NCBI GenBank assembly: GCA_006218065.1
Contig: VBWE01000002.1
Span: 85,973 to 149,972 of the forward strand
Length of the DNA: 64,000 bases
Direction: 5' to 3'
Origin: Bacteroidota bacterium
GTDB lineage: Bacteria; Bacteroidota; Bacteroidia; Palsa-965
The translations under genes were made by a program, and so were the position numbers. The notes below the pieces were generated by a model. That model had not been told where the DNA came from and made no database searches. It saw nothing but the letters and a program-made list of their open reading frames with translations. Shown here piece after piece: positions 1 to 10,983 of this stretch; the stretch's first letter is position 1; the number at the start of each line of letters is the position of its first letter.

Positions 1-301
1 CGGATACGCTTGGCAATCTCCGAAGCGATATGCGCGAGTTTTTGCTTCCCATCGCGCACCATGCGGCTTGCCTCGGCTGAAAGAGCCGCAGGCTGCAAAA
101 ACTGATGGGTATAGAGGATGAGCTTTTGATACTCTGCTCTGATGCTGCCGACATACGGATCAAGATTCGTGTCGGTTGGAACGGGCCGGTTGTCTTTGGC
201 AAAATGTCGCGCATCTTTCTGCGCTGTTTCTTTCAACTCTCCGTGCTTCTTTGCGATTGTGCGTTCAAGTTCCGGGCTTGTTGTTCTCTTCACGTCTTTC
301 A
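1..301 (-). CDS. hypothetical protein, N-terminal ~100 aa only (gene runs off window start)
   Basis: Minus-strand ORF with ATG at 299-301 (MKDVKRTTSPELERTIAKKHGELKE...) and no in-window stop. Its 5' UTR (AAAAACGAAAGCC-ATG-AA) and the upstream 33-bp motif are near-identical to those of the next gene. Absent from the ORF track because it is open at the window edge. Confidence 0.35.
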
Positions 302-332
302 TGGCTTTCGTTTTTAAGGTTCTTGTGTACAG

Positions 333-365
333 ATATATACTTTGGCGTAACAGGATTTCTGACAC
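333..365 (-). promoter_or_regulatory. conserved 33-bp motif, copy 1 (ATATATAC-N3-GGCGTAACAGG-N5-TGACA on + strand), about 30 nt upstream of the minus-strand ATG
   Basis: One of three near-identical motif copies (333-365, 793-825, 1623-1655), each just upstream of a minus-strand start codon. In gene orientation it reads TGTCA-N5-CCTGTTACGC-N4-GTATATAT, followed by a conserved AAAAAC..GCC-ATG leader. Confidence 0.5.
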
Positions 366-366
366 G

Positions 367-768
367 TCAACGGGTTCGAGTCGGTTCTTTGCTTCTGCTG
401 ACTCGCAGGCTTTTGAGCGATTGTTTTCGTTCCGCTTCCTGTGGAGTGAGCTGCTCCTTTTCGACTTCTTGGTTATGGTGAAGGAGAATTGCCGCGAGCT
501 TTTCGCGTTCCTGATAGATATTCCGCTTCAGTTCATGGAGCTTTGCTGTAGGAGCGAGAAAGGTGTTCCCTGTTACATCAGTAGCTCGATATGAGGACAC
601 TTCCATGTGTGGATCATATTCTTTGTAAATGCGACCACCAACAGCAAAGTGTTTGCCCGGTGTTTTTACAAGAATGGCAATGAAGTGTTGCCCCTTTTTC
701 CAGACAGGATACTCGTGGAAACGCATCTGGATATCGTTGTTCTCGGTATTCTTTTTTTCTTGGTTCAT
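367..768 (-). CDS. small hypothetical protein, paralog 1 of a tandem family (KGQ...EYDP...D-TGN signature)
   Basis: ORF 367..831(-) trimmed to the internal ATG at 768 (MNQEKKNTENN...), because the 5' extension would read through the conserved upstream motif. Shares F-EY...KGQ...I-AI...G...EYDP...D(V/M)TGN with the next two genes. Glu/Lys-rich coiled-coil-like C-terminus. Confidence 0.5.
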   Translation of the reverse strand: MNQEKKNTENNDIQMRFHEYPVWKKGQHFIAILVKTPGKHFAVGGRIYKEYDPHMEVSSYRATDVTGNTFLAPTAKLHELKRNIYQEREKLAAILLHHNQEVEKEQLTPQEAERKQSLKSLRVSRSKEPTRTR

Positions 769-792
769 GGCTTCGGTTTTTGGTACGTGGAT

Positions 793-825
793 ATATATAC
801 CCGAGCGTAACAGGCCCTCTGACAT
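793..825 (-). promoter_or_regulatory. conserved 33-bp motif, copy 2
   Basis: ATATATAC-ccg-aGCGTAACAGG-ccctc-TGACA, about 24 nt upstream of the ATG at 768. The leader CAAAAACCGAAGCCATGAA matches copy 1. Confidence 0.5.
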
Positions 826-845
826 CACCATGAACTTTTATTGTG

Positions 846-1280
846 TTACCGTTCTTGACCCTTGCCTTTTTTCTCCCGCGTATTTCGGATCTCCTGTATA
901 TCGTTGGTTTTTTCGTCAAGATTCTGTTCCGGTTCTTCGGGGCTTGGTTCCTGATTCTCTAAAGCTTGAGTCTGTTCTTGTAATTTTTCAAGCCGCTCAT
1001 CCGCAAGACGGCGAGCGTTTTCTTTCAAATAGTTCTTTTGCTGGTAATCAGTCGGGGTCGGTTGGGTCAGTTCATTACCATCCATGTCTTTGGCGACATG
1101 CGACCACTTTTTGCTTTCGGGATCGTATTCGGTGAAAACTTGTCCGACTGGCACTTCGGTTGTTCCGTCGGGCATGATGAAGATTGCGTCGATACGGCGT
1201 TGGCCTTTCGCATACTTGGTGTATTCGACGAACTTGAGCTGATTATATGGCCCTTTCGGGGTGCTTGTTTCTGGTTGCAT
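846..1280 (-). CDS. small hypothetical protein, paralog 2 of tandem family
   Basis: 144-aa ORF. LKFVEYTKYAKGQRRIDAIFIMPDGTTEVPVGQVFTEYDPESKKWSHVAKDMDGNEL aligns with paralog 1. Acidic/coiled-coil C-terminus. Only 21 bp downstream of paralog 3, so probably co-transcribed. Confidence 0.5.
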   Translation of the reverse strand: MQPETSTPKGPYNQLKFVEYTKYAKGQRRIDAIFIMPDGTTEVPVGQVFTEYDPESKKWSHVAKDMDGNELTQPTPTDYQQKNYLKENARRLADERLEKLQEQTQALENQEPSPEEPEQNLDEKTNDIQEIRNTREKKGKGQER

Positions 1281-1301
1281 AGTGTTTTGTGTTAATGATT
1301 G

Positions 1302-1598
1302 TTAGTGTGCCGACAGGGTTAATAGTATCTGTGCAGCGTTATTGATAATGACTTCTCGCAGTCCTTTGAGTGTTGTGCTTTCTGCGAGTATGACTGTTCC
1401 GGTCATGTCCTTGAGGAGATACGCAGGATTATTTGTTTCGGAATCGTACACGATATATGTCCGGGCTTGCGTGCCGTGGCCACCCTGTTTCCCTCGGTGA
1501 ATCGTGGTTCTTAAATAATAGTTCTCGTAATCTGTACCGGGCAGAAATGTGACCCATAGGCCTTCTGTTCCTGTATTCTTTTCTTCTGTTTTCATCAC
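1302..1598 (-). CDS. small hypothetical protein, paralog 3 of tandem family
   Basis: 98-aa ORF (MMKTEEKNTG...) with the same core (YIVYDSETNNPAYLLKDMTGTV). Preceded by motif copy 3. Confidence 0.45.
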   Translation of the reverse strand: MMKTEEKNTGTEGLWVTFLPGTDYENYYLRTTIHRGKQGGHGTQARTYIVYDSETNNPAYLLKDMTGTVILAESTTLKGLREVIINNAAQILLTLSAH

Positions 1599-1622
1599 GA
1601 ACCTGTTTTAGTTTGTATACAT

Positions 1623-1655
1623 ACATATACCAAGGCGTAACAGGAGTCATGACAC
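1623..1655 (-). promoter_or_regulatory. conserved 33-bp motif, copy 3
   Basis: ACATATAC-caa-gGCGTAACAGG-agtca-TGACA, about 24 nt upstream of the ATG at 1598. Confidence 0.5.
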
Positions 1656-1671
1656 AGACTCTTGATTATTC

Positions 1672-1708
1672 TTGAGTGCGGAAAAAGCTCAGAAATTGAG
1701 TGCGGAAA
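1672..1708 (+). repeat. direct repeat TTGAGTGCGGAAA x2 (24-bp spacing), possible integrase arm-type sites
   Basis: Exact 13-mer at 1672-1684 and 1696-1708, immediately upstream of the tRNA 3'-half remnant. Confidence 0.35.
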
Positions 1709-1787
1709 TACGGGTAGATACTCCTTAATGCAGGATGATGCAATGCCTGTTTATGCGGGATTACGCAAGATTAGGGACAGAGCAGGG

Positions 1788-1831
1788 CGCTGTTAATCAT
1801 GGGGTCCCTGGTTCGAGCCCAGGAGGGGGAG
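1788..1831 (+). tRNA. partial tRNA: tRNA-Asn(GUU)-like 3' half (anticodon loop CTGTTAA through T-arm and acceptor 3' strand), no 5' half; probable att-site remnant
   Basis: CTGTTAA-tcatg-gggtc-CCTGG-TTCGAGC-CCAGG-AGGGGGA-G has correct tRNA spacing: anticodon loop, 5-nt 3' stem strand, 5-nt variable loop, 17-nt T-arm with canonical TTCGAGC loop, 7-nt acceptor strand and discriminator. No complementary 5' acceptor strand (TCCCCCT) or D-arm exists in the 100 nt upstream. Confidence 0.5.
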
Positions 1832-1839
1832 CTTCACTA

Positions 1840-1878
1840 AATGCCTGAGAGAGAAATCTTTCAGGCATTTTTGTTTTT
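1840..1878 (+). terminator. rho-independent terminator (AATGCCTGA...TCAGGCATT + T-run)
   Basis: 9-bp perfect stem, 12-nt loop, followed by TTTTGTTTTT. Sits 8 nt after the tRNA-like 3' end, like a native tRNA terminator. Confidence 0.6.
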
Positions 1879-2146
1879 GGTCTGCGGAGTCTGTGAGCAG
1901 AAAAATCGGTCAAGGGGCGAATCAAGGAGCGGCATTTTTCAAATTACCGGTCAATCGTGATGTTTTTTTGCGGCTTTTCTGTTGCTCGAACGGGTAAGAT
2001 TTCAGTAGGTGTTTCCTTCTCTTTTCTGGCTCTTTGTTTTCAGCCTTTTCCTCGAGTGCTTCAAGGATGTATTGAAAGGTTCAAACTATTATTTGGAAAA
2101 TAGCCTCAGGGATTATACTTTCATAAAAAATTAATCCTTTTCAATT

Positions 2147-2443
2147 ATGGCAACAAAGAAAAAGGAAGAAACTCCTGTTACAAATTCAAACATTAATACA
2201 AATAACAATACGAACAATATAAATCTCAATGTAAAAGTTGAGCAGCCAAAACCAGATAGAAGATCACCCTCCCCTCCAAAAAAGAAGCCGAATTGGGTTG
2301 TAAAAACGATTGTTATCGGCATTATCGGTCTCGTACTTTCCCTTCTGGGTGTTTATCTCAAAAGAACATTAGACGGAGGACACGGCAGTGTGCCGGGAGT
2401 GCATAGCGAAATAGCCAATACATCAAAAAATGATTTCACTTGA
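2147..2443 (+). CDS. hypothetical Asn/Lys-rich low-complexity protein with one C-terminal TM helix
   Basis: 98-aa ORF in a low-GC islet. N-terminal NTNNNTNNIN low complexity, KKKPNWVVKTIVIGIIGLVLSLLGVYL helix. Confidence 0.35.
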   Translation: MATKKKEETPVTNSNINTNNNTNNINLNVKVEQPKPDRRSPSPPKKKPNWVVKTIVIGIIGLVLSLLGVYLKRTLDGGHGSVPGVHSEIANTSKNDFT

Positions 2444-2961
2444 AAACTCCTCTGCAAATGAAAAACACACTACGCATTTCTACGATTCTGCTTTTCGGAA
2501 TCACTCTACTGCTTATAGATGGATGCAAAAAAGAAGGGCCACAAGGCCCAGCCGGAAATGCCAATGTTGTCTCCCATACCTTTTCTGCCTCCTCCTGGTT
2601 ATGGAGTTCGCCAAATTATTATGTTGATTTCACGGTACCTGAACTGACTTCATCGAATATCAATGAGGCTGCCGTTATGGTGTATTTCAGTACCGTTGCT
2701 GGGAATTGGATTGCAGTGCCCTACACGCAATACAATTCGCCATATGATTACTTTATGAATTTTTTAACTGCCGTTAATACTGTTGAAGTAAGGTGGTTTT
2801 ATGACAGTTCACTAAGCAGTGGAAATGATCCAAACGTATATTATGGAACGACGGTTCAATTCAAGATTGTCATTATTCCTCCTGGAATACGAAAAGCAAA
2901 TCCTGATTTGGATTTGACGAATTATCAAGCGGTAAAACTGCAGTTTGGTTTATTGGATTAA
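2440..2961 (+). CDS. hypothetical lipoprotein (lipobox LLIDGC, short collagen-like GPQGPAG)
   Basis: 173-aa ORF with a 4-nt overlap to the previous ORF. Signal peptide plus Cys lipobox. AT-rich codon usage unlike the rest of the window. Confidence 0.45.
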   Translation: MKTPLQMKNTLRISTILLFGITLLLIDGCKKEGPQGPAGNANVVSHTFSASSWLWSSPNYYVDFTVPELTSSNINEAAVMVYFSTVAGNWIAVPYTQYNSPYDYFMNFLTAVNTVEVRWFYDSSLSSGNDPNVYYGTTVQFKIVIIPPGIRKANPDLDLTNYQAVKLQFGLLD

Positions 2962-2972
2962 ATGTAATAGTC

Positions 2973-3161
2973 TTAATCAAAAATCAACGATTCTCCACAA
3001 AATACATCTCCATCACCCCCTTGTTCTTCGCCTCGATTTTCCCCCGCGGCGCCCTGTAATTCCAGGTGCAGGGAATCAATGACAGCCTGGTTTCCGCTCT
3101 GCGAGAGGCCGGGACACAAAAAAGTCACTACTGCTGCAAGCAGTAAAGCGATTTTTTTCAT
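2973..3161 (-). CDS. small secreted hypothetical protein
   Basis: Internal start MKKIALLLAAVVTFLCPGLSQ (signal peptide) within ORF 2973..3236. Confidence 0.25.
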   Translation of the reverse strand: MKKIALLLAAVVTFLCPGLSQSGNQAVIDSLHLELQGAAGENRGEEQGGDGDVFCGESLIFD

Positions 3162-3363: not shown

Positions 3364-5112
3364 TTACTTCGTCTTGATCAGCTTCCGGATCGTTTTCCCG
3401 GATTTCGTGATCACGGTCACATAATACGTTCCCGCAGCAAGATTGCTTTTCAGCGTAACCGGTACACGCTGCGCGTGCGTCTTTACTTCAATACGCTCGA
3501 GCAGTTGCCCGTTGCTGCTGCTTATGATGATGCAATCGCCCGTTTCGAAATGGTGATTGATCCACTCCACGGTGATCATGCTCTCGGCCGGGTTCGGGTA
3601 AATGAAAATTTCTTCTGCATCCTGTTTCGCCGGGATGCCGGTTACGCCGCTGCCTTCGGTGATGGTGATGAACTGGTCTGCGGAAATGTTCGTGTATGTT
3701 TCCGCCGTTTGCCCCAGCCATTCCACGATCACGCTGTCGATCATTGTCGCATTACCCAGTCCGAAATGCGCGCGCAGGTCGTGTTGTCCGCAATACGAAG
3801 TCTGCGCCGAAATTTCGCGGAGCTGCCAGGTCGGAACGCCGTTGATCACCGCATGTACGCGGATCTTCGTGCCGATCGCTGCGCGGTTGGTGTTCGTTCC
3901 CGCCAGCCTGATCGTGATCCAGTGATTCGAATTGCCGTCGTTGTGGTATAAAAAGTCGTTTTCATCCATGCTGTTGAAACGACAGGTAGCCACGGCAAGG
4001 TCTTCGAAACCGTCGTTGTCGTAATCGCCGAAAGCGCATCCGTACGACCAGGCCGAATCGTTGGCGAGGATGCTCGTGCTGTTTCGCGTAAAACTGCCGT
4101 TGCCGTTGTTCAGGTAAAAAAAGTTTACCAGCCGGGCCGGTGTCGTGAATGCATTGGTCACAAAAAGATCCAGGTCCCCGTCGTTGTCCACATCCGACCA
4201 GTCGGAACTGAACGAATTTCCGCCGCTGTTCGAAACCGTATCCGAAACGATCTTGGTAAAATTGAAATTTCCGTCGTTGCGGAAGAGCGCGTTATTGCCC
4301 TGGTCGTTGGCGAGAAAAACATCGAGGTCGCCGTCGTTATCGTAATCGCCCCAGCTGCCGCTCATGGTTTTTCCGCCGTCGGTCAGCAGCGCGCCGGTAG
4401 TAATGGAAGTGAAATTTCCGCCACCGTCGTTACGATACAGGTTTTCATTCTGCCCGCTTTCGTTCGTCACAAAAAGATCGAGATCGTTGTCGCTGTCGAT
4501 GTCCGTCCAGTTCACGCAACGCGATTCACGCTGATCGGTCACGGGCGAACCGGTGAGAATTTTCGTGAACGTATGATCGCCGTTATTGTGATAGAGGAAA
4601 TTCCGCATCGTTCCGGCGCTGTTGGTGACATACATGTCCACGTACCCGTCGTTATCGTAATCGCCCCAGGAACCGGTTTCGGAATAACCGCCATCCGTTA
4701 CGATATCGCCGGTTTGAAATATCAGGAAACCGACGAAGAGCGTGCCCCGGTAAAGCATATTGTTTACGTTGTACCAGTTTGCCACGAAACAATCAAGCAC
4801 ACCGTCGTTGTCGTAATCGGCAAAAGTGGCGCCGTCGGAAGGTTTTCCGTCGTTGACGATCGTGTCAAGACTATTTTCAGGAATAAATGTCCCGTTACCG
4901 ATATTCAGATATAACATATTGTCCTGTCCGCCCGAAGGACCGTTCGTGATGAAACAATCTACCAGGTTGTCGTTGTTCACATCCACCCAGTTCACCGAAC
5001 GCGAATCACCCGGCGTATTGACCAGCGGCCCGGTCGTGACTTTGGTAAAATTCTGCGCGGAAGAAACAGCGACCGCAAAGCAAACAGCGAAAAGAGTAAA
5101 AGTCGTTTTCAT
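3364..5112 (-). CDS. FG-GAP/VCBS (CRTAC1/ASPIC-like) repeat protein with T9SS C-terminal sorting domain
   Basis: Repeated DxDxDGxxD motifs (GDYDNDG, DVDNDGDLD, TDIDSDNDLD). Signal peptide MKTTFTLFAVCFAVAVSSAQ at the internal start. C-terminus IYPNPAESMITVEW...GTYYVTVITKSGKTIRKLIKTK is typical of a Por_Secre_tail. Confidence 0.7.
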   Translation of the reverse strand: MKTTFTLFAVCFAVAVSSAQNFTKVTTGPLVNTPGDSRSVNWVDVNNDNLVDCFITNGPSGGQDNMLYLNIGNGTFIPENSLDTIVNDGKPSDGATFADYDNDGVLDCFVANWYNVNNMLYRGTLFVGFLIFQTGDIVTDGGYSETGSWGDYDNDGYVDMYVTNSAGTMRNFLYHNNGDHTFTKILTGSPVTDQRESRCVNWTDIDSDNDLDLFVTNESGQNENLYRNDGGGNFTSITTGALLTDGGKTMSGSWGDYDNDGDLDVFLANDQGNNALFRNDGNFNFTKIVSDTVSNSGGNSFSSDWSDVDNDGDLDLFVTNAFTTPARLVNFFYLNNGNGSFTRNSTSILANDSAWSYGCAFGDYDNDGFEDLAVATCRFNSMDENDFLYHNDGNSNHWITIRLAGTNTNRAAIGTKIRVHAVINGVPTWQLREISAQTSYCGQHDLRAHFGLGNATMIDSVIVEWLGQTAETYTNISADQFITITEGSGVTGIPAKQDAEEIFIYPNPAESMITVEWINHHFETGDCIIISSSNGQLLERIEVKTHAQRVPVTLKSNLAAGTYYVTVITKSGKTIRKLIKTK

Positions 5113-5350
5113 GGACATGATTTTAACGCAAGAATAAGCATCGGGAACCAGCGCATGCAGGAAAGTCGCCATCCGCCCGGACGTCTTTGACCAACAGCAG
5201 GAAAAGTAACCCGAGTGTCGTTGGTCTGTTCCGGGAAGTATTTCAGGCCGGGGAAAATACCGTTCGTATATTTCAACCTGTTTTCCGGCGGAAAAGCGGA
5301 AATTTGAGTCGCAGGTTTTTTTATCTGAAAGATGATGTATTTCATTAACA

Positions 5351-5429
5351 CAACCACGGAGGCACGGAGAGCACAGAGGAACACGGAGACTCTCTGTGCC
5401 TCTCCGTGTCCTCCGTGCCTCCGTGGTTG
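5351..5429. repeat. 79-bp palindrome built from CACGGAG-like heptamers (19-bp perfect arms CAACCACGGAGGCACGGAG)
   Basis: Arms at 5351-5369 and 5411-5429 are exact reverse complements. The interior is a scrambled array of cacggag/cacagag units. Lies between divergent gene starts at 5112 and 5458. Confidence 0.55.
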
Positions 5430-5457
5430 TTTTGTCCCTCGGTAATTCCCCTGACTA

Positions 5458-6534
5458 ATGACCAAACGAATCCTGCTCCATCTTGCGTTCTGGCTGATCT
5501 ATTTCTGCATCGTCCTTTATAACGACTTATTTCTCTCCGCTTCTTTTCTTGCCAATCCTTCCTGGCCCTGGGCGTCGAAAGCAATCCTGGCGCAATCACT
5601 CCTGCTGCTGATCAAAATCGCGACCGTTTATTATACGCTTTACCTACTCATCCCGCACTGGATGAAAGCGCGGTCGAAAATCGTTCCCGTGCTCGAAACG
5701 CTGGCTTTGTGTATCGTTGCGCTGGTGCTTTACCGGCTTATGATCCAGGTGGTTATCTGGAAATGGATTTACAATTCCGAAGCGGCGCTGAACAACCTTT
5801 CTTTCGTTGCGCGCGCTTTCCATTCGCTGCTCGACATCCTGCAGGTGGCAGGTGTTGCCGCGGCGATCAAACTGCTGCGCCTGCGCCTGGCTGCCGCGCA
5901 AAAAGAAAAAGCGCTCGTCAGGGAAAAATTGTCTTCCGAAATTCTGCACCTGAAATCACAGGTCAACCCGCATTTCCTTTTTAATTCACTGAACAGCGTT
6001 TTTGCGCTTTCGCGGATGCAGTCGGAAAAAACGCCCGACCTGGTCATGCGGCTTTCCAATATCCTGCGGTATATGCTTTACCAGTCGGAGAAAGAATTCA
6101 GCACGATCGGCGAAGAAGTAAAGATCATCCGCGATTATATTGAACTGCAGCAGCTTCGTTTCGGCGACCGCGTAACAGTAAAAACGGAGATCAATATCGA
6201 TGAACCTGCTGCACAGATCACGCCGCTGCTGCTTTTGCCGCTGGTGGAAAACGCATTCAAGCACGGGGTCGGCGGCGTAGCCGGGAATACGGAGATCAGC
6301 ATACGGATCGCTTTCCGCGACGGCCGGCTGGTGATGCAAACCGGTAACGCAGTATCCGCAGAAAATACGCCGGAAACCGGTGAAACAGGAATCGGCCTGT
6401 CGAATATCCGCCGGCAGCTGGAGTTGTTGTACAAGGACTATACCTTTACTGCAGAAAAAAAAGAACAGGTTTTTTCCGTTAACCTGCACATCAATATAAA
6501 ATCGTATGCCGGGACTGAACTGTATCATCATTGA
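5458..6534 (+). CDS. LytS/YehU-family sensor histidine kinase (5-6 TM plus His_kinase/HATPase)
   Basis: N-terminal polytopic membrane region, QVNPHFLFNSLNSV (LytS-type H-box), and a C-terminal GxG ATPase region. Confidence 0.75.
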   Translation: MTKRILLHLAFWLIYFCIVLYNDLFLSASFLANPSWPWASKAILAQSLLLLIKIATVYYTLYLLIPHWMKARSKIVPVLETLALCIVALVLYRLMIQVVIWKWIYNSEAALNNLSFVARAFHSLLDILQVAGVAAAIKLLRLRLAAAQKEKALVREKLSSEILHLKSQVNPHFLFNSLNSVFALSRMQSEKTPDLVMRLSNILRYMLYQSEKEFSTIGEEVKIIRDYIELQQLRFGDRVTVKTEINIDEPAAQITPLLLLPLVENAFKHGVGGVAGNTEISIRIAFRDGRLVMQTGNAVSAENTPETGETGIGLSNIRRQLELLYKDYTFTAEKKEQVFSVNLHINIKSYAGTELYHH

Positions 6535-9636: not shown

Positions 9637-10983
9637 ATGACGAAAAACAAAACCGGTTTGGGTGTACTGCTGCTGCTGGCCTGGTCGCTGCTTTTTTCGG
9701 GCCGTGCGGAGAAAGAAACGTTTGCCGTTTTTGTAAAAACGTTTTCCGGCGAATACACGCAATTAAATGTCCCGGGAATAGCATACGATTACCGGGAGTA
9801 TTTCAACGCCATTCCCGGTCCCGCGCAGTTGGACGCGCAGCAGGCTTTTTTTGAAAAGAAAAAAACAGCGCTGAATAATTTTTCCCGCGCGCAGTTGAAA
9901 CCCGTCGCGCAGGTTACGTTCGATCACCTGCAATACGAGATCGGTTTCAACCTCGAACGTATCGCACTCGAAAAATCCTGGGTGGCTGCCGGCCGGAAAT
10001 TGCCGGATGACGGCTTGTTTGCGCTGGAGAACCGGAAAGCCTGGTATGCGTACTTCATCAAAAAATTTACCAGCCTGGATTATACGCCGGAAGAAATCAT
10101 GTCCTTCGGATTGCAGGAAGTGAAACGCGTGCAGGGCGAGATCAACCGCATAAGGATGGAAACGGGCTTCACCGACAGTCTTGCTTTTGTGAAACATCTC
10201 GTCGGCGAAAAATTCATCATTACGGATAAAAAGAAATTGCAGGAAATTTTCGCACGGACCGACAGTGCGATCCGCAAAAACCTGGCTGCGTTTACCGGCG
10301 ACGCCAACCCGCCTGCCGTTTTTCCCATGGAGTGGCCGGACGCCGGCGCCAATACGCCGCCCGGGATGTACACGAACCACGAAGAAAATCCGTACGGCAA
10401 AGATGTGTTCCTGTATAATTTTTTCGGCGGACATTATAACAGCCGGGCGATCGAATGGCTTTACATGCACGAAGCCATACCGGGTCACCACCTGCAATGG
10501 TCGCTGCGGAATGATGAACAGAAAGACCCACTGCAAGATCTTTTTCTGTACCCCGGTAATTTCGAAGGCTGGGCCTGCTATGTGGAATACTACGGCAAAT
10601 CGCTCGGCGTATTTCGTGATCCGTACAGTGAGCTGGGCAAGTGGGAATGGGATCTGGTGCGCTCGGCAAGACTGGTGATTGAAACCGGGATTCATTACTA
10701 CGGCTGGACCAGGGAGCAGGCGCTGGCGTACTGGAAGAAAAATATTCCGGCACAGGACGATATCGCCGAACGCGAAGTAACCCGCGTAACCAACTGGCCG
10801 GCGCAGGCCATCAGCTACAAGATCGGTGCGGATTGCCTGGCGAAGATCAAAGAAGAAACAAAAAAGAAATACGGAAACGCGTTCAGCGAAGCCCGCTTTA
10901 ACCGCGCGTATTTATCTTTCGGTATGCGCCCGCTCGACGTGGTGAAAAATAATTTTGAGAATATGTACGCCGCCGGGAAATAA
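9637..10983 (+). CDS. DUF885-family protein (putative secreted metallopeptidase-like)
   Basis: Signal peptide, then the HEAIPGHHLQ motif typical of DUF885. 4-nt spacing from the upstream gene. Confidence 0.6.
   Translation: MTKNKTGLGVLLLLAWSLLFSGRAEKETFAVFVKTFSGEYTQLNVPGIAYDYREYFNAIPGPAQLDAQQAFFEKKKTALNNFSRAQLKPVAQVTFDHLQYEIGFNLERIALEKSWVAAGRKLPDDGLFALENRKAWYAYFIKKFTSLDYTPEEIMSFGLQEVKRVQGEINRIRMETGFTDSLAFVKHLVGEKFIITDKKKLQEIFARTDSAIRKNLAAFTGDANPPAVFPMEWPDAGANTPPGMYTNHEENPYGKDVFLYNFFGGHYNSRAIEWLYMHEAIPGHHLQWSLRNDEQKDPLQDLFLYPGNFEGWACYVEYYGKSLGVFRDPYSELGKWEWDLVRSARLVIETGIHYYGWTREQALAYWKKNIPAQDDIAEREVTRVTNWPAQAISYKIGADCLAKIKEETKKKYGNAFSEARFNRAYLSFGMRPLDVVKNNFENMYAAGK

Follow-up and report, generated by a model that had tools for sequence, protein, structure and literature searches.

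What is the function of a 32-bp sequence that occurs three times ahead of genes at the start of a 64,000-nucleotide stretch of DNA from a Bacteroidota bacterium (assembly GCA_006218065.1, contig VBWE01000002.1, positions 85,973 to 149,972)? Judged from their sequence, bases 1 to ~1790 of this stretch, referred to here as the window, are the distal end of a Bacteroidota integrative mobilizable element (IME) that resides in a tRNA-Asn gene, and the locus forms the regulatory front end of a variant of such elements that had not been described before. We propose, as a reading that has an even chance of being right, that each of the three motif copies acts as a promoter for genes at the head of the mobilization module, with an element-specific operator in its spacer. 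Mobilizable elements of the Bacteroidota move resistance and defense genes, and this copy carries a cyclic oligonucleotide-based antiphage signaling system (CBASS); little is known about the expression of their transfer genes and the roles of their many small genes.

Three copies of a 32-bp motif at the element end

The motif lies on the minus strand and reads, in gene orientation, TGTCA-N5-CCTGTTACGC-N4-GTATAT(A/G)T. A search of the 64-kb window with the corresponding plus-strand pattern, ATATATAC-N3-RGCGTAACAGG-N5-TGACA, allowing up to 3 mismatches, returned exactly 3 matches, of which two were exact (333-364 and 793-824) and one had a single mismatch (1623-1654; ACATATAC). None of 100 shuffled sequences contained a match, and the expected count was 0, compared to the 3 observed. 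Each copy occupies intergenic DNA on the coding strand, 24 to 30 nt ahead of a start codon. Copy D (1623..1654, minus strand) has TGTCA at 1654-1650, CCTGTTACGC at 1644-1635, and GTATATGT at 1630-1623, and it ends 27 nt before the ATG of gene D (1595). In copy B (793..824, minus strand), TGTCA is at 824-820, CCTGTTACGC at 814-805, and GTATATAT at 800-793, and the ATG of gene B (768) follows after 24 nt. Copy A (333..364, minus strand; TGTCA at 364-360, CCTGTTACGC at 354-345, and GTATATAT at 340-333) is 30 nt away from the ATG of gene A (302). The three in-register copies with start codons downstream, as described in the original prediction, were thus confirmed. Copy B is located inside an over-long annotated open reading frame (ORF; 367-831), copy A begins 2 nt past the stop codon of gene B, and copy D, ~135 bp in from the junction with the chromosome, is the promoter-like site nearest to the element end.

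Conservation among the three copies is confined to blocks. The central 10-mer CCTGTTACGC is the same at 10 of 10 bases, the spacers have no invariant position among their 9, and the outer boxes are conserved save for one A-to-G change in copy D. GTATAT is the sole strongly AT-rich block within the motif. Since the downstream paralogs B, C, and D share 25 to 29% identity, this pattern argues for selection on specific blocks rather than recent duplication or gene conversion. The tandem arrangement of these paralogs would suit an origin of the copies as functionless leftovers of a duplication that carried them along with the genes. This explanation is largely refuted by the block pattern, with a central part that is identical ahead of such divergent proteins; moreover, gene A has a motif and is not a paralog, gene C is a paralog and has none, and the outer boxes recur in other elements. 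We consider it highly improbable.

The exact motif had no further copy in the rest of the window or in the ~16 kb of the element, and no match was found in three public collections (species-representative genomes, JGI metagenomes, and viral contigs), the first of which evidently does not include the source genome. An intra-element repeat search of the other related elements likewise detected no multicopy upstream repeat of this kind. The full motif belongs to this element alone; it is not reused across the genome and does not mark a genome-wide regulon.

Related elements share the outer boxes

The bipartite pattern TGTCW-N18-19-GTATRT recurs in four other related elements, on contigs L005 (twice), L006, L018, and L019, in each case ahead of the small genes equivalent to those of the window. 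These sites are all on the + (coding) strand and intergenic, and an ATG is present 25 to 73 nt further on. The spacing between TGTCW and GTATRT was 18 to 19 bp at all eight sites (8/8), those of the window included. The pattern is expected by chance 0.13 times per 64 kb, and a single stray match was observed, in L009, on the opposite strand and within a gene. The spacers at the sites of the related elements are unrelated to CCTGTTACGC. We read the motif as two putative layers, namely, a bipartite signal common to the element family and a 10-mer specific for this element.

Other TGTCA repeats, with shorter spacing than in the main motif, are also found ahead of small genes. The arrangement TGTCACGC-N5-TGTA-N5-6-TAGTG occurs twice in L013 (10460-10560), and TGTCA-N10-TATATC is present in L005 (1100-1120 and 1745-1775).

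A candidate promoter with an operator in its spacer

We infer promoter activity and an operator role for the motif and, with them, the involvement of a sigma factor and a regulator. TGTCA and GTATAT, 19 bp apart, would be read by the RNA polymerase holoenzyme, and transcripts would begin a few bases past GTATAT, giving A-rich leaders of 15 to 25 nt without a Shine-Dalgarno sequence, which is normal for the phylum. CCTGTTACGC in the spacer would bind an element-specific regulator. The predicted transcription units are D-C, B, and a third that runs from A to the coupling protein and the relaxase, and a protein bound at CCTGTTACGC would control all three together.

A number of observations are consistent with this proposal. 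(i) The spacing of the outer boxes equals that of the -33/-7 elements of Bacteroidota, and the upstream box lies about where a sigma-A promoter calls for one (~19 to 21 bp from the -7 box). (ii) Copy D is so close to the junction that, when the element is integrated, only the att region and a tRNA remnant remain upstream to supply transcription. (iii) Gene C begins 21 nt after gene D and has no motif, as expected if both are cotranscribed. (iv) The central 10-mer is private to the element, as expected for an operator.

Other findings weigh against it. The sigma-A consensus of Bacteroidota consists of TTTG at -33 and TAnnTTTG (TAHHTTTG) at -7 (PMC6847099, PMC9723704). The -7 box is absent from the motif, the best alignments being TATGTATG (copy D), TATATCTG (copy A), and TATATATC (copy B), all without TTTG, and the upstream box TGTCW differs from the -33 TTTG. 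A scan of positions 1-2200 for Escherichia coli sigma-70 promoters (TTGACA, 16 to 18 bp, TATAAT) detected no site at any copy, and none of the alternative promoter motifs of Flavobacterium, namely, sigma-54, TAnnTTGY, and extracytoplasmic function (ECF) sites with CGT (PMC6847099, PMC9723704), was matched. The element proteins scanned included neither a sigma factor nor a recognizable DNA-binding regulator; weak ribbon-helix-helix/NikA hints were seen in an accessory protein only. CCTGTTACGC is not palindromic, which is unusual for the site of a dimeric repressor. With no terminators between the genes, B and A do not strictly require promoters of their own. Finally, the bipartite sites amount to just 8 in 5 elements, and L009, L011, and L013 have family genes without a bipartite motif. 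The earlier claim of a promoter with a built-in regulator site is therefore sustained in part: position, strand, the outer boxes in four relatives, and the private 10-mer speak for it, and the lack of fit to any known sigma consensus speaks against it.

The main rival, which we judge unlikely, is that the motif in its entirety forms an array of sites for a DNA-binding protein of the element or the host and is not part of a promoter. The outer boxes would then be half-sites and the center the specificity determinant, and the protein might serve as an activator bound upstream of an unrecognized promoter, as a silencer, as a nucleoid-type protein, or as an accessory factor of the relaxosome or of excision. 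Conservation in blocks and boxes that fit no known sigma consensus (PMC6847099) are compatible with such an array, as are the short local palindromes in which TGTCA is embedded (GTCATGAC in copy D and TGACgtGTCA in copy A) and the TGTCACGC repeats that precede small genes of L013 and L005 at a different spacing. The fixed distance to the start codon, the strict strand orientation, and the AT-rich GTATAT at a -10-like distance are better suited to a promoter, and no candidate for the binding protein was found among the element proteins scanned.

The location of the motif between co-oriented genes without terminators, and in particular of copy A 2 nt behind the stop codon of gene B, would also be compatible with a function in RNA, where the motif might serve in processing, as a translational operator, or as the target of a small RNA and in this way set relative gene output. 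The three copies do not share a fold, however; their minimum-energy structures differ from one another (z-scores, -2.0, 0.1, and -0.7), and the energy of the consensus structure is -4.9 kcal/mol. In addition, the array opens with copy D, and with the element integrated, a long transcript arriving there from upstream is unlikely. We regard a role in RNA as improbable.

A DNA-processing site was also considered, either a relaxase nick-like site (CCTG|T) or an integron attC-like site for cassette recombination. CCTG|T is similar to the ATCCTG core found in MOB-P nic sites and T-DNA borders. Copy A reads ATCCTGT, the relaxase of the element is of the MobA/VirD2 family (PF03432), and the small genes are cassette-like in their arrangement. 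In contrast, CCTG alone is common to the three copies, there is neither an adjacent oriT-type inverted repeat nor an attC-like palindrome, and three transfer origins at a fixed distance from start codons are implausible. We consider this possibility highly improbable.

The motif had also been described as a direct repeat of TGT(C/T)A one helical turn apart, and LytTR and ECF proteins had been named as candidate regulators; nothing points to either class. A LytTR site consists of two 9-bp direct repeats, [TA][AC][CA]GTTN[AG][TG], with 12 bp between them. In the motif, the starts of TGTCA and TGTTA are 12 bp apart instead of ~21 bp, a T precedes GTT, and the second half, TGTTA, is not conserved in the relatives. 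An offset of 12 bp is also not one helical turn, and with TGTTA variable the direct repeat is not what has been conserved. The SOS (LexA-like) box of Bacteroidota is a GGA-N5-TCC or CTAA-N5-TTAG palindrome (PMC8565304), neither of which is present in the motif.

Returning to the proposed promoter-operator, it resembles a primary-sigma promoter of Bacteroidota in having two boxes ~19 to 20 bp apart, near a start codon and followed by an A-rich leader without a Shine-Dalgarno sequence, and differs from it in the boxes themselves (TGTCW/GTATRT), the downstream one lacking TTTG. Operators repeated at several backbone promoters are known from IncP plasmids, in which they are recognized by KorA and KorB. 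The likeness consists in one short identical sequence within several promoters of one mobile element, which would allow coordinated control. Here, however, the candidate 10-mer is asymmetric, present in three copies only, and without a repressor among the element proteins scanned. The locus offers a compact promoter-like type that departs from every known sigma consensus of the Bacteroidota and a candidate 10-bp operator for the joint control of three transcription units.

A conserved leader had been noted between motif and start codon. It is clear for genes A and B, in which the A run covers -9 to -13, and partial in D, in which it covers -11 to -14. Similar leaders (TAAAAAC..AA..C ATG) are present ahead of many motif-less genes of these elements, and an overrepresentation of A at -14 to -11 is normal for Bacteroidota translation starts that lack a Shine-Dalgarno sequence (PMC6847099). 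The AAAAAC leader is therefore an ordinary A-rich Bacteroidota translation start region and no special regulatory unit.

Genes at the window end and a corrected start site

Four minus-strand genes occupy the element end. Gene D (1302..1595, 97 amino acids [aa]) encodes a divergent member of a small-protein family, recovered with an E value of 3.4e-4 by a profile built without the window proteins. Gene C (846..1280, 144 aa) encodes a further member that ends in ...IQEIRNTREKKGKGQER, and gene B (367..768, 133 aa) a third, ending in ...LKSLRVSRSKEPTRTR. Gene A (1..302) is cut by the window edge after its first 100 codons; the whole protein has 343 aa (L001, 1518-2549) and is a multipass membrane protein that is kept beside the small genes in every related element. 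A terminator scan detected no terminators between these co-oriented genes.

That three of the four genes are paralogous (B, C, and the divergent D) agrees with the original prediction, which had also warned that the longest ORF of B would run through the motif. The deposited NCBI call for B (FD123_425, 154 aa, 367-831) is this longest ORF. The family profile covers only residues 22 to 154 of FD123_425, and the family alignment agrees; B therefore starts at ATG 768, and FD123_425 starts 21 codons too early.

The mobile element and its insertion site

The end of a mobile element was not part of the earlier account of this locus. An identical region on Logan contig L001 and on European Nucleotide Archive (ENA) contig L021 revealed the genes past the window edge. 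Their order is D, C, B, A, a 231-aa protein with a lipoprotein-type N terminus, a VirD4/TraG-type coupling protein (PF02534; E, 1.2e-56), a 182-aa accessory protein, which is the one with the weak ribbon-helix-helix/NikA hints, and a relaxase, followed by cargo. The relaxase, of the MobA/VirD2 type (277 aa; L001, 5413-6246; PF03432; E, 2.2e-16), supplies the mobilization function expected of an IME. It has 308 homologs at an E value of ≤1e-10, and the named ones are labeled Bacteroidia or Bacteroidetes. Beyond the coupling protein, no type IV secretion system families were detected in ~16 kb of this element or in 10 to 16 kb of its relatives. The cargo includes the CBASS (E2-CBASS, a DncV-like nucleotidyltransferase, and SAVED; L021, 16436-19243), which adjoins a protein kinase and a DnaJ-domain protein. 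The related elements on L018 and L019 carry NACHT/STAND NTPases as cargo.

Site-specific integration is apparent from a recognizable junction at 1790-1880, composed of half a tRNA-Asn gene and a terminator. The 3' half of tRNA-Asn(GTT) at 1790..1831 on the plus strand, CTGTTAATCATGGGGTCCCTGGTTCGAGCCCAGGAGGGGGAG, runs from the anticodon loop CTGTTAA (GTT) through the variable region, the T arm, and the 3' acceptor strand to the discriminator base and forms the attR-like boundary between element and chromosome. The bases 5' of it are unable to pair as an anticodon stem, and no complete tRNA or Rfam family was detected in window positions 1-3000. This half was identified by eye and confirmed via the comparison of junctions in four elements: those on L013, L018, and L019/L020 adjoin the same tRNA-Asn half, and identity ends at the same base, 5' of CTGTTAATC. 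The element on L002 adjoins a different tRNA-like 3' end, read as tRNA-Tyr. A strong intrinsic terminator on the plus strand (1839..1880), with a 14-pair stem followed by a T run, belongs to the displaced tRNA gene.

Two direct copies of TTTCCGCACTCAA are found on the minus strand at 1672..1708 (L001, 112-124 and 136-148), 24 bp apart from start to start and ~100 bp inside the junction. Comparable TTCCGCAC(C) pairs are present near the ends of other elements (L002, ~60-160; L013, ~9890-9915; L016, 3882-3902; L019/L020, at 127-157 of L019). These paired TTCCGCAC(C)-type repeats are probably arm-type sites for a recombinase or excisionase. Single extra copies of TTCCGCAC(C) are inconsistently placed, an example being that upstream of the coupling-protein gene (L001, 3340-3354). 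As for the integrase side, a 472-aa protein with a faint tyrosine-recombinase match is encoded just upstream of the small genes on L011, and L009 contains an integrase 10 kb upstream.

The element shares with the Bacteroidota IMEs NBU1, NBU2, Tn4555, and Tn4399 (PMC5704250) a chromosomal site in the 3' portion of a tRNA gene and, in a comparison by gene content, a MobA/VirD2-type relaxase with an accessory factor, and cargo; no mating-pore genes were found in the ~16 kb seen. It differs from them in having its own VirD4-type coupling protein, the conserved 343-aa membrane protein, the lipoprotein, the array of small proteins, and DUF6908/ArdC proteins with a common C-terminal tail.

An unnamed family of small proteins

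An exhaustive profile search showed that B, C, and D belong to an unnamed family of at least 148 cluster representatives at an E value of ≤1e-3, 51 of them at ≤1e-10; a word-indexed search had recovered the family proteins of just two elements. B, C, and D matched no Pfam, NCBIfam, or PHROG model, and tblastn searches of plasmid records with C and A returned no matches. The family alignment consists of an N-terminal domain of ~90 residues, F.EY...KGQHFITV...G...IGRI.REYD.E.KK..Y.A.D..GN..F....L..LKK.F.E....LA, a variable charged linker, and a conserved extreme C terminus. An AlphaFold model of C (mean predicted local distance difference test score, 85.6; core, >95) contains four strands followed by a long helix. 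Foldseek searches of PDB and BFVD with this model gave no significant match, and there was no sequence match in PDB; the top PDB fold match, an integron cassette protein, had an E value of 0.5 and is not significant. The earlier remark that the paralogs could not be assigned to a known family is thus borne out.

All members with visible neighbors head the same module, which consists of one or several small proteins with or without a DUF6908 protein, a membrane protein of ~350 aa, a protein of ~240 aa, the coupling protein, the accessory protein, and the relaxase. The concern that B, C, and D are fragments of one disrupted longer gene is thereby removed. The module on L016 has neither small genes nor the motif. 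Searches for relatives of gene A found none in genome contigs, and metagenomes added only L016 and L017. Some members are tandem double-domain proteins, such as P0006 (260 aa; L011, 10001-10783), and in P0066 (319 aa) a DUF6908 domain is fused to the family domain, which supports a functional link of DUF6908 with the family.

The family profile also matched giant surface proteins with Kelch, DUF11, MBG, or YDG domains (P0037, P0101, P0105, and P0140) up to 14 times each. These matches are short, the best stretches being within profile positions 14 to 77, and probably reflect a generic resemblance to Ig-like repeats and not a shared function.

A C-terminal tail shared with relaxases

The tail pattern h-x-x-h-R-x8-14-h-x-R-COOH is common to the small family, DUF6908 proteins, ArdC/MPTase proteins, and relaxases. 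The tails of C and B are encoded at 846-900 and 367-420 in the window, and further carriers at L001 5413-6246, L005 7848-8828, L009 15882-16859, and L018 280-1962. A terminal Arg is found in 101 of 146 family representatives, compared to a background Arg frequency of 6.4%, in all four DUF6908 neighbors (4/4; L005, L006, L011, and L018), and in 2 of 3 ArdC/MPTase proteins, the third, on L018, ending instead in ...MIRMRGREEELRK. The relaxase of the window element has the C terminus ...ENDLQNVRRKGERKMER; among 120 relaxase homologs, 71 have a terminal Arg and 80 contain h-x-x-h-R at the right distance. A tail profile derived solely from the 28 C-terminal residues of the relaxases matched 84 of 146 family proteins (19 at an E value of ≤0.01) and 2 of 105 background ORFs (0 at ≤0.01). 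The full tail is absent from the membrane protein, the lipoprotein, the coupling protein, and the accessory factor of each element, from the cargo proteins, apart from an occasional terminal Arg by chance, and from gene D.

Relaxases are the canonical substrates of coupling proteins, and charged C-terminal signals are common to relaxases and effectors in other phyla, as in the Agrobacterium VirB/D4 system and in Bartonella, where a BID domain is combined with a tail. On these grounds the tail is a candidate for a recognition signal, not described before, of the element-encoded coupling protein, and we suggest, tentatively and with more doubt than confidence, that the small, DUF6908, and ArdC-type proteins are cotransferred with the DNA into the recipient. 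There they might blunt defenses or help establishment, and the repeated promoter-operator would load the donor with tailed proteins in step with transfer. As in Agrobacterium, with its Arg-rich tail, and Bartonella, a charged end is present on the relaxase and on unrelated small proteins encoded beside the coupling protein; the pattern, which here exists in basic or acidic versions, the phylum, and the mating-pore type are different.

The arrangement is also reminiscent of the leading-region antidefense genes of conjugative plasmids (PMC11541004), in that small uncharacterized genes lie at one side of the transfer module and, in related elements, an ArdC-type antirestriction protein is nearby. 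Unlike in the leading regions (PMC11541004), no hairpin-type single-strand promoter was seen here, and the likeness is one of gene arrangement.

The locus thus adds a family of at least 148 clusters that, in members with visible context, is encoded beside a coupling protein and a relaxase and shares the relaxase tail. Should this tail prove to be a transfer signal, proteins that conjugation delivers in the Bacteroidota could be recognized by a sequence rule. By itself the motif is of modest significance; a promoter type without a known match and a tail in common with relaxases make the locus more notable.

A further repeat in the window

Outside the element end, the window contains a 43-nt inverted repeat at 5347-5433, with arms that are 81% complementary and separated by 1 nt. 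It is composed of CACGGAG-like units, is unrelated to the motif, and is located in a 285-bp gap between two divergent genes (3364-5172, minus strand, and 5458-6534, plus strand).

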